Below are positions 411 to 25,104 of a stretch of DNA of 64,000 bases, one piece after another; the stretch's first letter is position 1; every line of letters begins with the position of its first letter. Made by a program: the position numbers and the translations under genes. The notes under the pieces were generated by a model. That model saw only the letters and a list, made by a program, of their open reading frames with translations. It had not been told where the DNA came from and did no database searches. This DNA comes from Acidimicrobiia bacterium. Lineage in GTDB: Bacteria; Actinomycetota; Acidimicrobiia; Spongiisociales; ZC4RG35. The DNA lies in the NCBI GenBank assembly GCA_036525795.1, contig DATCZS010000112.1:8635-72634 (forward strand). The letters are read 5' to 3'.

Positions 411-426
411 TTCCACACGTGTGGAA
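411..426. terminator. perfect 16-bp palindrome TTCCACACGTGTGGAA (hairpin) between convergent genes; possible bidirectional terminator
   Basis: read directly from sequence; flanking AACCTT/AAGGTT extend the stem; no U-tract (usual in high-GC genomes). Confidence 0.3.
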
Positions 427-13607: not shown

Positions 13608-15542
<1,935 letters not shown>

Positions 15543-15635: not shown

Positions 15636-15947
15636 TCACGCTTCTCGCGGTCTCCGAGCCGGGGGTCTGACCCTGATCTCGGTGACGACTCCGGGGCCCA
15701 GTTCCGCCTCCAGTCGATGCAGCAGGCTGGTGATTCCATATCGCAGGATCGCCACCGCTTGAGGGGCCACCGCCTCCACCACCAGCACACCCCGGTTGAG
15801 CGACACGGGTGTCGACTGCCGATCCCACGGGGAGCCGGCGAAGCGTTCCCACCCTTGCTCGATTCGTTGCCACACCGCCGGATCCGCCACCCCGAGGTTC
15901 GACATCAGCCTCCGGAGCAGGTCTCCGAGCCGGGCCGGGTCGTTCAT
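15636..15947 (-). CDS. dciA: DUF721 protein (Rv0004/DciA-like, putative replicative helicase operator)
   Basis: conserved position between recF and gyrB; MNDPARLGDLLRRLMSNLGV...; start placed at the ATG right after the recF stop (ORF extends to 15980). Confidence 0.55.
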   Translation of the reverse strand: MNDPARLGDLLRRLMSNLGVADPAVWQRIEQGWERFAGSPWDRQSTPVSLNRGVLVVEAVAPQAVAILRYGITSLLHRLEAELGPGVVTEIRVRPPARRPREA

Positions 15948-17041
15948 GCCGCCACCACCTTCCCGGCCTCCACCGACCACACCGATCCTTGCAGCGGCAC
16001 GTCACCCGGGTGAGCGGTCGTCACGATGGTCTGCGCGCGCGGCAGGGCATTGGTGAGGGCGGTTCCCCGTCCCGGATCGAGCTCGCTGTACACATCGTCG
16101 AGCAGCAGAACAGGGGCCGCTCCGGTGGATTCGGTGATGGCCCGGTGCGCCGCCAGGCGCAGAGCCAGCGCCACCGTGCGCTGTTCTCCCTGGCTGGCGT
16201 GATGCCGGGCGTCGTGACCGCCGAGAACCAGCACCGGTTCGTCGCGATGTGGACCGGCCGTCGTCACTCGGCGATCACGATCCTCGCGGCGGCGTTCCTC
16301 GAGTGTTCGCCGCAGCCGGTCGGTGAGTTCGGAGACCGGAACGGACGGATCGAGCGCTCCTCCCCAGGCCGAGTGGTACTCGACTCCGACGCCGACCTCC
16401 GACTCGGACACCCGTCTGTGCGCCTCCTCGAGGTGGGCGAGAATGGCAGCCAGAGCCCGCGCCCGCCTCCCCATCACGCGTCCCCCGGCCATCGCCATTC
16501 GCTCATCCCACACCGACAACGTGACCTCGTCGCCTGATCCCTGTTTGAGGAAGGCATTGCGCTGGCGAACCGCCCGCTCGAACTCGCTCTGCTCGACGTG
16601 CGCCGCCGGCCACAATTGCACCGCCACGTCGTCGATGAACTCTCGTCTCAACGCCGGGCCGCGCTTGACGATGTCGAGGTCTTCGGGGAGGAATGCGACG
16701 ATCCTCACGTGTCCCAGGAGATCCGACGATCTGACAAGGCGCTGACGATTGACCATCGACCGCCTCCCCCCGCGTCGTCGGATCTCGATCTCGATCAGCG
16801 AGGTGGCGTCTGCGGACACCACCGAGGATCTCACGAAGGCCGACTCGTGCCCGAATGCCACCAGGGCTTCGTCCGGGGCCCCTCGAAACGATTTGAGCGC
16901 TGCAACATACGACACTGCCTCCAGCAGGTTCGTCTTGCCCGCACCGTTTCTCCCGACGAGCACGTTCACGTCCTCGCTGGGGTGCCACTCCAGCTCGCCG
17001 TACGAGCGGAAGCCGGCCAGCGACAGCCACTCGATGTGCAC
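15944..17041 (-). CDS. recF: DNA replication and repair protein RecF
   Basis: MHIEWLSLAGFRSYGELEW...VLVGRNGAGKTNLLEAV (Walker A); 365 aa. Confidence 0.95.
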   Translation of the reverse strand: MHIEWLSLAGFRSYGELEWHPSEDVNVLVGRNGAGKTNLLEAVSYVAALKSFRGAPDEALVAFGHESAFVRSSVVSADATSLIEIEIRRRGGRRSMVNRQRLVRSSDLLGHVRIVAFLPEDLDIVKRGPALRREFIDDVAVQLWPAAHVEQSEFERAVRQRNAFLKQGSGDEVTLSVWDERMAMAGGRVMGRRARALAAILAHLEEAHRRVSESEVGVGVEYHSAWGGALDPSVPVSELTDRLRRTLEERRREDRDRRVTTAGPHRDEPVLVLGGHDARHHASQGEQRTVALALRLAAHRAITESTGAAPVLLLDDVYSELDPGRGTALTNALPRAQTIVTTAHPGDVPLQGSVWSVEAGKVVAA

Positions 17042-17047
17042 CGGCGA

Positions 17048-18130
17048 TCAGACCCGGACCGGCATCAACAGGTAGATGAAACTCGAATCGTCGACGGCCG
17101 ACAGGACGCTCGGCTTCAACCCGTCGATGACCTGGATCTTGACCTCGTCGCCGCTCACGGCGTTGACCCCATCGGCCAGATAGCGGGGGTTGAAAGCGAT
17201 CTGCACCTCGGACTGCTCCCCCGCGTAGGCCCCGGAGAGGTGCTCCGCCTCGGCGCCCACGTCCTGGCGGTTGACCGCGATCTCCACGCCGCCATCGGAC
17301 AACCTCAGGCGCACCGGGATGTGGTCCTCCGCCACGAGCGACACTCTGCCCAGCGCCTCCAACAGTCCTTCTTTCGACACGACCACCTGGTTGGGATAGG
17401 CCTCGGGGAGCAAGGTCTGATACTTGGGGAAGGTGCCCTCGATCATCCTCAGCCGGAGCGTTCCCCTGTGCGATGCGAACACTCCCTCTCTCCCTTCGAG
17501 GTCGACTCGCACCTTGGTGGAACCGATGGTCCGGGGGAGCTCCTTCAACCCGCGGGCAGGGATCAGCCCGGATTCTTCGATACCGACTCCCGCCAGGTCG
17601 CGCACCGCCAGCCGGTACGAGTCGGTGGCGACCAACCTGACCCCGTCCTCGCGTGACTCGAAGAGCACCCCCGTGAGGATCGGCCTGGCGGCGTCGCCGG
17701 AGGCGGCCACCGCCACCTGGGACACCGCGGCCGCCAGCGCCTCACCGTCGACTTCGGTTCCGCCCACGGGACGCTCCTCGGACGCAGGGAAGTCGTCCAC
17801 CGCCAGCTGTCGCAACGTGAACCGAGGGCCCTTTCCGACGATCTCGACATCTCCGTCCTCGGTTCCGATCGTCACCTGCCCGGACGGCATCCTCCTGACC
17901 GCCTGCTCGAGCAACCGACCGGGGATGACGGCCCTGCCTTCCTCGAGGGTCTCGACCTCCGCCTGTGTACGCACCGTCATCTCGAGGTCGGTTCCCGTCA
18001 CCTTGAGGGTCGAGCCACTCACCTCGCACAACAGGCCTTGCAGAACGGGCAGGGCAGACCGGGCTCCGACAGCCCGATTGGCACGAGAGAACACATCTCC
18101 CAGATCGTCTCGCTCGGCTCTGATTCTCAC
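17048..18130 (-). CDS. dnaN: DNA polymerase III beta sliding clamp
   Basis: GTG start; MRIRAERDDLGDVFSRANRAVG...; 360 aa, three-domain clamp pattern. Confidence 0.95.
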   Translation of the reverse strand: MRIRAERDDLGDVFSRANRAVGARSALPVLQGLLCEVSGSTLKVTGTDLEMTVRTQAEVETLEEGRAVIPGRLLEQAVRRMPSGQVTIGTEDGDVEIVGKGPRFTLRQLAVDDFPASEERPVGGTEVDGEALAAAVSQVAVAASGDAARPILTGVLFESREDGVRLVATDSYRLAVRDLAGVGIEESGLIPARGLKELPRTIGSTKVRVDLEGREGVFASHRGTLRLRMIEGTFPKYQTLLPEAYPNQVVVSKEGLLEALGRVSLVAEDHIPVRLRLSDGGVEIAVNRQDVGAEAEHLSGAYAGEQSEVQIAFNPRYLADGVNAVSGDEVKIQVIDGLKPSVLSAVDDSSFIYLLMPVRV

Positions 18131-18315
18131 AAGGGGTTTCCCTTCTTCGTCTTCTGTCTTTTGATATTCAACTCAGTAGTCGTAGTAGGCGTTGTGGATT
18201 GTGGATGATTCTGCAGATCTCCAACCGTGACGGGCGATCCCGGGCTTTTCGCGATGTGGATCTCTCCGGGTGTATTCCACAGGCGTTCGCTCCGACGCCA
18301 CGGGGTGTGGATGAG
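18131..18315. promoter_or_regulatory. putative oriC: DnaA-box cluster plus AT-rich unwinding element in the dnaN-dnaA spacer
   Basis: five TGTGGAT/ATCCACA-type boxes (18193, 18200 in tandem, 18255, 18275 reversed, 18306) and a locally AT-rich stretch 18150-18190 (cttctgtcttttgatattcaactcagtagtcgtagtagg). Confidence 0.6.
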
Positions 18316-19713
18316 TCAGGACGTTCTCCTCAGGCTCTGGGACAAGTCGGAGACCCGATCGAAGACGTCGCGATCGCTCTGCATCAGCTGCTGGACCTTC
18401 TCGATGGCGTACATCACCGTGGTGTGATCGCGGCCCCCGAACATCGCTCCGATCTTGGGCAGCGAGAGATCGGTCAGGTCGCGGCAGAGATACATCGCCA
18501 CCTGCCGGCACTGAACGAGCGGTTGCCGGCGACTGGGTCCGGTGACCTCGTCCAGGCTGAACCCGTATGCCTCGGCGGAGGCCCGGATGATCTCCGGGGC
18601 TGCCACCGCCTTGGCTTCGTGACCGGGAAGCAGATCCTGGAGCACCCGTTCGGCGACGTGGACGTCGATGGGCTCTCCCGTGAGCGAGGCAAAGGCCGTC
18701 ACCCGGGTGAGGGCACCTTCGAGCTCACGGATGTTGTCAGAGACGAGCCCGGCGATGAAGGCGAGGACGTCTGGGGGAACCTCCAGCGGAGCGAAGTCGG
18801 CGTTTCTGTTGAGGATCGCCAAGCGGGTCTCGATGTCCGGAGGCTGGATGTCGGTCAGGAGACCCCACTCGAAGCGACTTCGCAGCCGGTCTTCGAGGGT
18901 CGAGAGGTTCCGCGGATGACGATCCGAGCTGATGACCATCTGCTTGCCCGATTCGTACAGCGTGTTGAAGGTGTGGAAGAACTCCTCGAGGATCTGTTCC
19001 TTGCTCTCGAAGAACTGAACGTCGTCGAGCAAGAGGATGTCCGTGGTCCGGTATCTCGTCTTGAACTCGTCCATGCGCTTGCGCCGGATGGAGTCGATGA
19101 AGTCGTTGAAGAACGCCTCGGATGAGATGTAGCGGACGGTGAGACCCGGATAGAGCTCGAGGGCGTGATGCCCGATCGCGTTCAGGAGGTGGGTCTTGCC
19201 GAGACCGGCCCCGCCGTAGATGAACAGAGGGTTGTAGTGGTTTCCCGGTTGCTCGGCCACCGCCATGGCCGCGGCCCAGGCGAAGCGATTCGACTGGCCG
19301 ACCACGAAGCTCTCGAACCGGTACTTGCGCACCAGCCGGGCGGCGGCCTCCGGGCTGGGGAGGGCATCGCCGGCGGCTGGCTCTGGCTCATCTGGCAGAG
19401 AAGGCTGCGGGCGGATCGGGCCGGGATGGAGTTCTTCCTGGAGCGGCTCGCCGCTCGTCAGTCTGAGCTCGAGATGGGTCCCGAACGCGGTGGAGAAGGC
19501 CTCTTCGACGGCATCTCCGTGTTTGGCCATCACCCAACGCAGGTGGAAGTCCGACGGCGCGACGAGCGTCAAGCCCTCGTCGTCCATGTGACCTTCCAGC
19601 CGCGCGAGCCAGGTCTGCCATGCTCCCGGGCTCACACGAGCCCGCAATACATCGCGAAAGCGCGACCACCGATCGTCGGTGGGGTGAGGGTGCGGCAACA
19701 GTCCTCCTCCCAT
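18316..19713 (-). CDS. dnaA: chromosomal replication initiator DnaA
   Basis: AAA+ GLGKTHLLNAIG, C-terminal DNA-binding domain; longest ORF reaches 19788, but an inverted DnaA-box pair lies inside codons 8-14, so the ATG at 19713 (MGGGLLPHPHPTDDRWSRF) is preferred. Confidence 0.9.
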   Translation of the reverse strand: MGGGLLPHPHPTDDRWSRFRDVLRARVSPGAWQTWLARLEGHMDDEGLTLVAPSDFHLRWVMAKHGDAVEEAFSTAFGTHLELRLTSGEPLQEELHPGPIRPQPSLPDEPEPAAGDALPSPEAAARLVRKYRFESFVVGQSNRFAWAAAMAVAEQPGNHYNPLFIYGGAGLGKTHLLNAIGHHALELYPGLTVRYISSEAFFNDFIDSIRRKRMDEFKTRYRTTDILLLDDVQFFESKEQILEEFFHTFNTLYESGKQMVISSDRHPRNLSTLEDRLRSRFEWGLLTDIQPPDIETRLAILNRNADFAPLEVPPDVLAFIAGLVSDNIRELEGALTRVTAFASLTGEPIDVHVAERVLQDLLPGHEAKAVAAPEIIRASAEAYGFSLDEVTGPSRRQPLVQCRQVAMYLCRDLTDLSLPKIGAMFGGRDHTTVMYAIEKVQQLMQSDRDVFDRVSDLSQSLRRTS

Positions 19714-19746
19714 TTCGCTGCCATGCGGACCCGATCTCCACAGGCT

Positions 19747-19765
19747 CCTCCACACTTGTGGATAA
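19747..19765. promoter_or_regulatory. inverted DnaA-box pair (TCCACA-CT-TGTGGATAA; perfect TTATCCACA on the minus strand) at the dnaA 5' end
   Basis: read directly; consistent with dnaA autoregulation. Confidence 0.5.
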
Positions 19766-20135
19766 GCCAGACCGGGTTCGCTCTGCACACTGTCGTTCAG
19801 TTGTCGGAGCGCGTCGAACGACGGGTCCCGAAGGGGGGAAGTGACCCGATCTACGGCGTCCGACCGGCAATATAGGGAGCTCGCTTGCCGGCGTTCAAGA
19901 ACGCGGAAACCGCGACTGGACGGCCGGTCGACGGCGTCGCGATCCCGGAAATACCCTGCTGATCATTGAGGATTTCCACGTCGGGCCCCCCGGCGGGATC
20001 GGTGGGTTTGGGCGGTGACTGGTTGTCGGGTTTTTTCGCGAGCTAGCTCGGGTGTTCGCGAGTCGGCCCCGGCTTTGACAGTACGCCCCGACGGTCCGTA
20101 GCCTATTGCGGTCAATCCCGAGCAGACAGCCAATC

Positions 20136-20270
20136 ATGAAACGTACGTATCAACCCAAAGTCCGTCGGCGCAAGCGGCGGCATGGATTCCGGCACCGAAT
20201 GCACACCAGGGCCGGGCGGGCCGTTCTCAAGGCCCGCCGGGACAAGGGTCGCAAGCGGTTGGCTGCCTGA
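20136..20270 (+). CDS. rpmH: 50S ribosomal protein L34
   Basis: [44 protein letters not shown]; 44 aa; absent from the ORF track because of its length. Confidence 0.92.
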
Positions 20271-20318
20271 CCCATCACCCGGATCCCCACCCTCCGTACC
20301 CCGCGACACTTCCGCCGG

Positions 20319-20594
20319 GTGTTCGACACGGGAACCAGACGCCGCAGGGGCGGCATCACCGTGGTCAGTGCCCCGCCGGTATCGTCCGGGGGGGCGGTAG
20401 GGTTTGTGATCAGCCGTTCTTCCGGGAAGGCGGTGGTCAGGAACCGGATCAAGCGTCGCCTGCGGGCGGCGGTCCGAGAGATACCGGAGTTCCTCGAGCA
20501 GGATCGCGTTGTGATCGCCACCGGAGCGATCGCCACGGTCCCGTTCGAAACGCTGGTGCAGTGGCTTTTGGCGGCGATATCCCATGACGAGTGA
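20319..20594 (+). CDS. rnpA: ribonuclease P protein component (N-terminus uncertain)
   Basis: GTG at 20319; conserved RnpA-like residues ([16 protein letters not shown]) continue in frame upstream to the rpmH stop with no canonical start codon. Confidence 0.75.
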
Positions 20595-22634: not shown

Positions 22635-22718
22635 CCCGTCCAGCGGTGACGGTGTGCCAGGAGCCGGGCCCGAGGGCCCGGCTCCTGGCGTTGGGGCAGG
22701 TCTCGGCCGGCGGGCACT

Positions 22719-24999: not shown

Positions 25000-25057
25000 G
25001 CTGAGTCCTGAGTCCTGAGTCCTGAGTCGGCCGGGGGAGTGGCGCCGGCGGAGAGCC

Positions 25058-25104
25058 ATCCACACGTGTGGAAACATCTGGGTAGAACTACATCGACGTA
25101 GTTC
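25058..25104. terminator. two hairpins between convergent parB and the amidase gene: palindrome TCCACACGTGTGGAA (25059-25073) and GAACTAC-N6-GTAGTTC (25085-25104)
   Basis: read directly; first element shares its 16-bp core with 411-426. Confidence 0.35.

Follow-up and report, generated by a model that had tools for sequence, protein, structure and literature searches.

In Bacillus subtilis, DnaA bound to two DnaA boxes loads an ATP-DnaA oligomer onto 3'-GAT-5' repeats, the DnaA-trios, so that one strand is stretched and the duplex opens (PMC6669920, PMC8287927, PMC10721633). The parts of this basal unwinding system (BUS), namely DnaA-boxes 6 and 7, the trios and an AT-rich stretch, lie in incC/oriC2 between dnaA and dnaN (PMC6669920, PMC8287927, PMC10721633). 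Here, we analyzed the dnaA–dnaN spacer and the dnaA leader in a 64,000-nucleotide stretch of DNA from an Acidimicrobiia bacterium (contig DATCZS010000112.1; the whole stretch is referred to as the window, and positions are counted from its first letter). The spacer, which likewise lies between dnaA and dnaN, spans 185 bp at 18131-18315 (minus strand) and is predicted to be a continuous chromosomal origin of replication (oriC). A preliminary description of the sequence had placed oriC within these coordinates, which were confirmed. The assignment is well supported in silico by a cluster of DnaA boxes, trios, the least stable DNA and the skew minimum of the window, and a conserved module, and it can be resolved to base-level parts. 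Taken as a whole, we consider it probable that the spacer is the chromosomal origin and carries a Bacillus-type BUS, that dnaA is translated from TTG 19698, and that a box cluster in the dnaA leader is most likely a repressor site. Statements on function throughout (DnaA binding, unwinding, promoter use and repression) derive from homology.

Read in the sense of dnaA (minus strand), two overlapping boxes in direct tandem, TCATCCACA and CAATCCACA (18193-18208), repeat with a 7-bp period and form the predicted double-strand anchor of the unwinding system. The tandem at 18193 and 18200 had been recognized before. TCATCCACA has one mismatch and is separated from the first trio by 11 nt; CAATCCACA has two and is separated from it by 4 nt. 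On the same strand they are followed by a 4-nt GC-rich spacer, ACGC (18189-18192), which separates the proximal box from the trios, and then by CTA CTA CGA CTA CTG. On the plus strand the latter forms a DnaA-trio array, 3'-GAT GAT GCT GAT GAC-5' (18174-18188; 5'-CAGTAGTCGTAGTAG-3'), trios being defined as in PMC6669920 and PMC8287927. Next to the array lies an AT-rich element of ~35% GC (18149-18173), the predicted DNA unwinding element (DUE), which abuts the ribosome-binding site of dnaN. The locally AT-rich stretch claimed earlier was also found, with 40% GC at 18140-18199 and ~0.63-0.72 elsewhere in the window. In a nearest-neighbour stability scan, the lowest duplex stability of the 64 kb fell at 18149-18188 (GC 35-40%) for lengths of 20, 30 and 40 bp alike, adjacent to the boxes as expected for the unwinding element of a DnaA-dependent oriC. 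TCCACANTCCACANNNNCTACTAC, the complete pattern, and TCCACAATCCACA-ACGC-CTACTACGACTAC each occur once in the window, where 0 are expected. The published rule for a BUS asks for a box with at most 2 mismatches 0-16 bp from the trios and, optionally, a second tandem box with at most 4 (PMC8287927). Both are present here, as are a ~4-bp GC-rich spacer and trios on the strand complementary to 5'-TCCACA.

Conservation of this module is the strongest argument for an origin. Loci around dnaA, 80 in number, were compared (individual loci are numbered L001 onwards), and the nearest DnaA proteins in a reference genome collection were those of Acidimicrobiia metagenome-assembled genomes (MAGs; 63-67% identity). 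The same module, at the same distance to the dnaN start, was found in 11 of 11 other Acidimicrobiia examined, in spacers of 172-271 bp. Loci of Peribacillus, Brevibacillus, Clostridium, Nocardia and Nocardiopsis also showed the box-trio pattern, four of them aligning column for column with the Acidimicrobiia. The 4-nt gap between proximal box and trios was identical in the window and in all 13 loci matching the pattern, among them Acidimicrobiia, Bacillales, Clostridium, Nocardia and Nocardiopsis. Across 16 aligned origins TCCACA-N1-3-TCCACA was nearly invariant, the trio start CTACTAC was invariant or nearly so, and the central base of the third triplet was C, T or G in relatives.

Three further boxes are dispersed over the spacer: TCATCCACA at 18306-18314 (minus strand), 1 nt past the dnaA stop codon, TATTCCACA in the opposite orientation at 18273-18281 (plus strand, 2 mismatches), and AGATCCACA at 18255-18263 (minus strand). 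Five TGTGGAT boxes had been reported for the spacer. Four are exact on the plus strand (18193, 18200, 18255 and 18306); the fifth is imperfect and inverted, reading TGTGGAA on the other strand. With five boxes of at most 2 mismatches in 185 intergenic bp, the spacer carries a cluster of the kind that marks DnaA-dependent origins. TGTGGAT occurs nine times in the window, and four of these copies fall inside 120 bp of the spacer; 5.5 are expected per 64 kb and 0.016 per 185 bp (Poisson P ~3e-9 for four in the spacer). Similarly, 6 of the 65 nine-mers of the window with at most 2 mismatches to TTATCCACA lie in the spacer, which is the top 500-bp bin. The box at -181 to -189 from the dnaN start was also present in L001-L004, L006 and L007. 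In L001, the box at 18255 and the position and orientation of the inverted box are kept, and all five boxes have the same order, orientation and gaps (30/31, 21, 55 and 7 bp) in intervening DNA that has diverged. No repeats beyond DnaA boxes were seen in the spacer or in the gap upstream of dnaA. The hexamer AGATCT, reported to be an ATP-DnaA box at the Escherichia coli dnaA promoter (PMC8203912), stands at 18215-18220, 6 nt from the tandem boxes, and is not kept in L001.

Among described origins, the predicted unwinding module aligns best with the BUS of the Bacillus type. As in B. subtilis, two direct boxes, a 4-nt GC-rich spacer and repeated 3'-GAT-5' triplets on the same strand and in the same orientation are followed by AT-rich DNA before dnaN, and the core aligns column for column with the Peribacillus and Brevibacillus origins. 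The period of the tandem boxes differs: they repeat every 7 bp here (a 2-nt overlap), every 8 bp in the Bacillales loci and every 9 bp in Nocardia. Unlike in B. subtilis, the third triplet is GCT (GNT in relatives) and the AT-rich element is short (~25 bp) and of ~35% GC in a genome of ~67% GC. B. subtilis loads its helicase by DnaD, DnaB and DnaI, whereas the loader gene near the spacer studied here is dciA, and origin function is here a prediction from sequence.

The preliminary description had compared the spacer with the origins of mycobacteria and streptomycetes. The comparison holds for location but not for box type, box number or origin length. The phylum, the position between dnaA and dnaN and the synteny are shared with the Streptomyces/Mycobacterium oriC; a long origin rich in TTGTCCACA was not found. 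The Streptomyces origin extends over ~950 bp with 19 boxes (S. coelicolor; PMC4285127), compared to 185 bp and five boxes here, and the spacer is shorter even than the 250-bp E. coli oriC. The boxes are of the ATCCACA type, (T/C/A)NATCCACA, whereas mycobacteria and streptomycetes use TTGTCCACA; boxes of the latter type are not enriched in the window (2 matches at no more than 1 mismatch versus 7 expected). At the level of the unwinding module the resemblance is greater. The predicted S. coelicolor BUS reads AATAGGTGC CATAGGTGT CCGG GATGATGATGAC (boxes, CCGG, GAT GAT GAT GAC), and the published predicted BUS of Rubrobacter is closely similar. In sum, the spacer looks like an ordinary origin of the well-studied Bacillus type, which leaves current models unchallenged.

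GC skew points to the same place. Over the window, cumulative G-C traces a V whose minimum, at 18174, falls within the module, so that the switch in strand asymmetry of a DnaA-dependent oriC is present within the 64 kb. By analogy with B. subtilis, DnaA would bind the three dispersed boxes (18306-18314, 18273-18281 and 18255-18263) and the tandem pair at 18193-18208. An ATP-DnaA oligomer could then grow from the tandem pair across the 4-nt spacer onto the plus-strand trios (18188-18174), stretch this strand and open the AT-rich element at 18149-18173. The helicase would be loaded at the opened DNA, presumably via DciA, which is encoded after recF.

A second group of boxes lies on the other side of dnaA. 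The perfect E. coli-type box TTATCCACA occurs once in the window (19765-19757, minus strand), with an inverted TCCACA 2 bp away at 19749-19754. The two had been described as an inverted pair within codons 8-14 of the longest dnaA open reading frame (ORF). Both boxes are present and lie within these codons; the partner, which had been taken to begin at 19747, was given two bases too many, and a third box at 19734-19742 had been missed. The leader hence contains a cluster of three boxes, TTATCCACA-AG-TGTGGAGGA-GCC-TGTGGAGAT (19734-19765, minus strand), with the arrangement TCCACA-N2-TGTGGA-N6-TGTGGA. The cluster is kept upstream of dnaA in every Acidimicrobiia relative. Of the 80 loci, 23 have this arrangement of three boxes upstream of dnaA; they come from several phyla and include Pseudonocardiaceae, Nocardia, Gaiellales, Brevibacillus, Paenibacillaceae and a Sumerlaeota MAG. 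In B. subtilis, the leader of dnaA carries TTATCCACAAAGTGTGGATAAGTTGTGGAT.

Upstream of the cluster, a sigma-70-like sequence, TTGAAC, 18 nt, TATATT (19869-19898, minus strand; -10 element at 19874-19869), is the predicted dnaA promoter and the sole consensus match in the region. The pattern TTGnnn-17/18-nATACT was found in the window and in L001-L006, at 152-156 nt (206 nt in L005) from the start of the match in the Shine-Dalgarno/start-codon region. From this promoter, dnaA would be transcribed leftward from a predicted transcript start near 19862, with a leader of ~165 nt, and translated from TTG 19698. The three boxes would occupy ~+98 to +129 of this leader, between the predicted -10 element and the Shine-Dalgarno sequence at 19711-19702, as in autoregulated dnaA genes. 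In E. coli, B. subtilis, S. lividans and mycobacteria, dnaA is repressed through DnaA boxes in its promoter or leader (PMC8203912). Since autoregulation through such boxes is established in these organisms, repression would be the most economical reading of the leader cluster, and autoregulation of dnaA is plausible. By analogy, leader-bound DnaA most likely represses dnaA, and perhaps dnaN, either by forming a roadblock to transcription or through a loop with the origin. High-affinity boxes between the predicted promoter and the start are a feature shared with the autoregulated dnaA promoters (PMC8203912), and the same arrangement is seen in the Bacillales loci. In the latter, the cluster directly follows the promoter-like sequence, whereas it lies farther downstream here. 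Unlike the autoregulated systems, the locus has no conserved ATP-DnaA boxes of the AGATCT type, and repression is here a prediction.

The leader cluster is not an unwinding site, because it has neither a trio array nor an AT-rich element. The rpmH–dnaA gap as a whole was also rejected as a site of unwinding: none of its boxes has trios beside it, and it lacks a strongly AT-rich element. Its lowest GC content is 40% over 30 bp (19949-19978), beside only a weak TTTCCACG. The minimum-free-energy fold of the leader RNA was unremarkable (z = -1.3). Two short motifs were observed in the leader. ACTTCCC(C) at 19836-19842 (minus strand), 27-32 nt past the predicted -10 element, is kept in the window and in L001-L006 and is complementary to a GGGAGG Shine-Dalgarno sequence with one G-U pair; no consistent pairing partner and no covariation were seen for it across the relatives. 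A 10-nt direct repeat, GACCCGATCT, occurs at 19728-19737 and 19843-19852, where it abuts the third leader box and the ACTTCCC motif, respectively, and was not seen in L001. Farther upstream, TTTTCGCG(A) at 20033-20045 (plus strand; CGCGAAAA in dnaA sense) is kept in L001-L004 and L006. It lies ~30 nt upstream of TTGACA, a possible -35 element of rpmH, and may represent either an upstream promoter element or the target of a regulator.

The alternative that survives best, which we regard as possible but clearly the less likely account, is a bipartite origin as in B. subtilis and Helicobacter pylori. Here, the cluster at 19734-19765 would be more than a transcriptional operator: it would serve as oriC1 and loop to oriC2, the site of unwinding, in the spacer, a function with which autoregulation is compatible. 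Two box clusters indeed flank dnaA in the window, and only the downstream one has a DUE, as in B. subtilis oriC1/oriC2 and in H. pylori (PMC3479198). In B. subtilis, box clusters likewise flank dnaA and strands separate only at oriC2 (PMC13220808). The arrangement TCCACA-N2-3-TGTGGA-N4-6-TGTGGA is found upstream of dnaA in Brevibacillus and Paenibacillaceae, just past a promoter-like sequence, and its occurrence in 23 of 80 loci across phyla suggests more than a lineage-specific operator. However, the upstream cluster has only three boxes and, as noted, neither trios nor an AT-rich element; compared with the known bipartite origins, it is a candidate for a role in initiation. Moreover, Streptomyces and E. 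coli have origins described as continuous, with all functional modules in one intergenic region (PMC4285127), and the available evidence fits looping and simple repression alike.

With regard to the start of dnaA, the preliminary description had argued for ATG 19713 in place of the beginning of the longest ORF. That the gene is shorter than the longest ORF was borne out; ATG 19713 is not the best-supported start and is probably five codons off. Instead, the sequence comparisons lead us to favour TTG 19698 as the likely start of a protein of 460 amino acids (aa). This start is preferred because a conserved Shine-Dalgarno sequence and the starts of the relatives point to it. The Shine-Dalgarno sequence GGGAGGAGGA (19702-19711, minus strand) precedes TTG 19698 by 3-7 nt, contains the conserved GGGAGGAGG and overlaps the ATG at 19713-19711. 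GGAGG was invariant in an alignment of seven leaders, and in all close relatives a Shine-Dalgarno sequence was followed by TTG or GTG 4-10 nt later. In the window and in L001-L004, the conserved Trp of DnaA_N follows this TTG or GTG at a distance of exactly 10 codons. Counted from 19698, the Pfam DnaA_N match begins at residue 10, which confirms that the N-terminal homology starts after 19713. The predicted N-termini are MPHPHPTDDR from TTG 19698 and MGGGLLPHPHPTDDR from ATG 19713. The proposed coding sequence extends over 18316-19698 (minus strand) and ends with TGA at 18318-18316.

A start at ATG 19713, with GGA GGA GGA read as Gly-Gly-Gly, appears unlikely to us. ATG is the strongest start codon, this one lies upstream of all DnaA_N homology, and Actinomycetota can initiate translation without a Shine-Dalgarno sequence, all of which counts in its favour. 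It is, however, preceded by CGCATGGCAGCGAA, which offers no Shine-Dalgarno sequence, and it overlaps the conserved GGGAGGAGG, itself correctly spaced from TTG 19698. No equivalent start codon exists in L002, L003, L004 or L006, the ATG of L003 being out of frame, and in L006 a stop two codons upstream makes the GTG equivalent to 19698 the first possible start. Public gene calls, which are predictions and not independent evidence, give the same dnaA as 460 aa on two Logan contigs and as 423 aa on three ENA/NCBI contigs, never as 465 aa. Starting from an internal ATG, the 423-aa version lacks the DnaA_N match.

Several points weigh against the combined reading of a BUS-type origin in the spacer, a TTG start and a repressor site in the leader. 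The strict published rule of at least three consecutive 3'-NAN-5' triplets, (.A.){3,} (PMC8287927), is broken by the third triplet, GCT. If a central A or C is permitted, five consecutive trios are obtained, and a central C supports strand separation and origin activity in vivo nearly as well as A (PMC10721633). The upstream tandem box lies 11 nt and not the commonest 13 nt from the first trio, because the tandem boxes have a 7-bp period. The skew covers 64 kb, so that the minimum of the entire chromosome may lie elsewhere, and a change of gene orientation close by confounds it. The predicted dnaA promoter rests on a consensus match only, and L001 has an in-frame TTG at the position of ATG 19713, which also speaks for the latter as a start. 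In the literature searched, no paper joined the terms Acidimicrobiia, oriC and dnaA.

That the boxes of the spacer merely regulate dnaN or dnaA–dnaN, or titrate DnaA, and that the true origin lies elsewhere is in our view very unlikely. Such roles do exist: in B. subtilis, neighbouring genes are regulated by DnaA-box clusters located outside oriC (PMC3245932). In addition, our view is limited to 64 kb of the chromosome, and the window holds two more box pairs, at 412-425 and 25059-25072. Nevertheless, the spacer carries the full succession of boxes, spacer, trios and AT-rich DNA, with the proximal 4-nt spacing invariant as in other phyla. A module of this kind is the experimentally defined unwinding element of B. 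subtilis (PMC6669920), and here it coincides with the skew minimum and the least stable DNA of the window.

The leader cluster and the region from GTG 19788 to the DnaA_N homology are non-coding; dnaA is therefore shorter than the longest ORF (19788-18316, minus strand; GTG start, 490 aa). The cluster is read as (F/Y/H)P(Q/H)VW in the dnaA frame in four sequences (in the long ORF as ...AYPQVWR...) and in another frame in five. L001 and L006 have an in-frame stop between the cluster and dnaA. In the 30 codons that precede 19698, the G+C content at third positions (GC3) is 0.57, compared to 0.85 +/- 0.08 in 30-codon windows of four neighbouring genes, of which only 0.2% reach a value this low. 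Conserved translated residues upstream of 19713 would have spoken for a longer protein, but the likeness of L003 and L004 in this region (FPQVW..LW) is only apparent, because the boxes are conserved at the DNA level. Thus, although the frame is open from 19788 and L003 and L004 share a similar cluster peptide in the dnaA frame, it is hardly credible that the 490-aa ORF is the real dnaA with the boxes inside its coding sequence, given the other frame in five relatives, the stops in two, the low GC3, and the lack of both a Shine-Dalgarno sequence before 19788 and any public gene call that uses this codon.

The analysis provides a base-level origin prediction for the Acidimicrobiia, an uncultured and poorly studied class of Actinomycetota. 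It can be used to anchor genome coordinates, to estimate growth rates from metagenome coverage and to design replicating vectors. It also corrects the start calls of dnaA, on which public annotations disagree (460 versus a truncated 423 aa), and adds comparative support for conservation of the box-trio unwinding module across phyla. For biochemistry, the locus offers natural variation in the period of the boxes, in the distance from anchor to trios and in the central base of the third trio, which is not A.

The genes around the spacer form the canonical synteny of an origin region. On the minus strand lie gyrB (15533..13608), dciA (15947..15636), recF (17041..15944), dnaN (18130..17048) and dnaA. 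Facing them on the plus strand are rpmH (20136-20270), rnpA, yidD, yidC, jag, rsmG, parA and parB. dnaN (17048-18130, minus strand) has a GTG start and encodes 360 aa; the identical protein is found on many public contigs. The dciA gene (15636-15947, minus strand; PF05258, E = 2e-14) codes for 103 aa, is flanked by recF and gyrB and overlaps the stop codon of recF. DciA is a helicase-loading factor in bacteria that lack DnaC and DnaI, and a dciA gene next to the origin would fit DciA-dependent helicase loading there. The public metagenome contigs with identical DnaN are 99.8-99.9% identical in DNA over 2-9 kb aligned. They differ at four positions in 18100-20200, one of them in the spacer (18296, outside the boxes), and because of these few differences the near-identical strain contigs are uninformative for footprinting. 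An apparent 155-nt insertion in one of the contigs (L081) is a scaffold gap of Ns. rpmH was not called on any of the public contigs L081-L086.

The head-to-head palindrome TCCACA-NN-TGTGGA of the leader pair occurs three times in the window (412-425, 19749-19762 and 25059-25072; 0.15 expected), and none of 100 shuffles reached three. The copies at 412 and 25059 are the identical 14-mer TCCACACGTGTGGA, with the same 2-bp geometry as in the dnaA leader. They lie in gaps between convergent genes, one between crgA and a 90-aa ORF, the other between parB and a gene for a peptidoglycan-binding domain. Near the origin, these pairs may provide additional sites for the binding or titration of DnaA; alternatively, they may be the sites of another regulator. 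A wider reading, which we regard as rather doubtful, would have the Acidimicrobiia use an unusually compact origin (172-271 bp) with a class-specific BUS (overlapping tandem boxes with a 7-bp period, 11 nt from anchor to trios, and an array interrupted at its third triplet, GAT GAT GNT GAT). In this scheme an ancient three-box leader module shared with Bacillota would form the second half of the origin, and the TCCACACGTGTGGA pairs at 412 and 25059 would act as DnaA titration sites close to the origin.

An Rfam scan of 17800-20400 returned a single match, AsdA (antisense RNA of dnaA mRNA; 19128-19218, plus strand), at 28 bits against a gathering score of 52. It was rejected as an RNA gene, being below threshold and antisense to the conserved AAA+ part, and most likely reflects conservation of the dnaA sequence. 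A search of the window with the parS consensus gave a single match with 3 mismatches, at 22718. Finally, directly past the parB stop, a tandem repeat of GAGTCCT in nearly four copies (25000-25027) precedes the palindrome at 25059 by ~30 nt.

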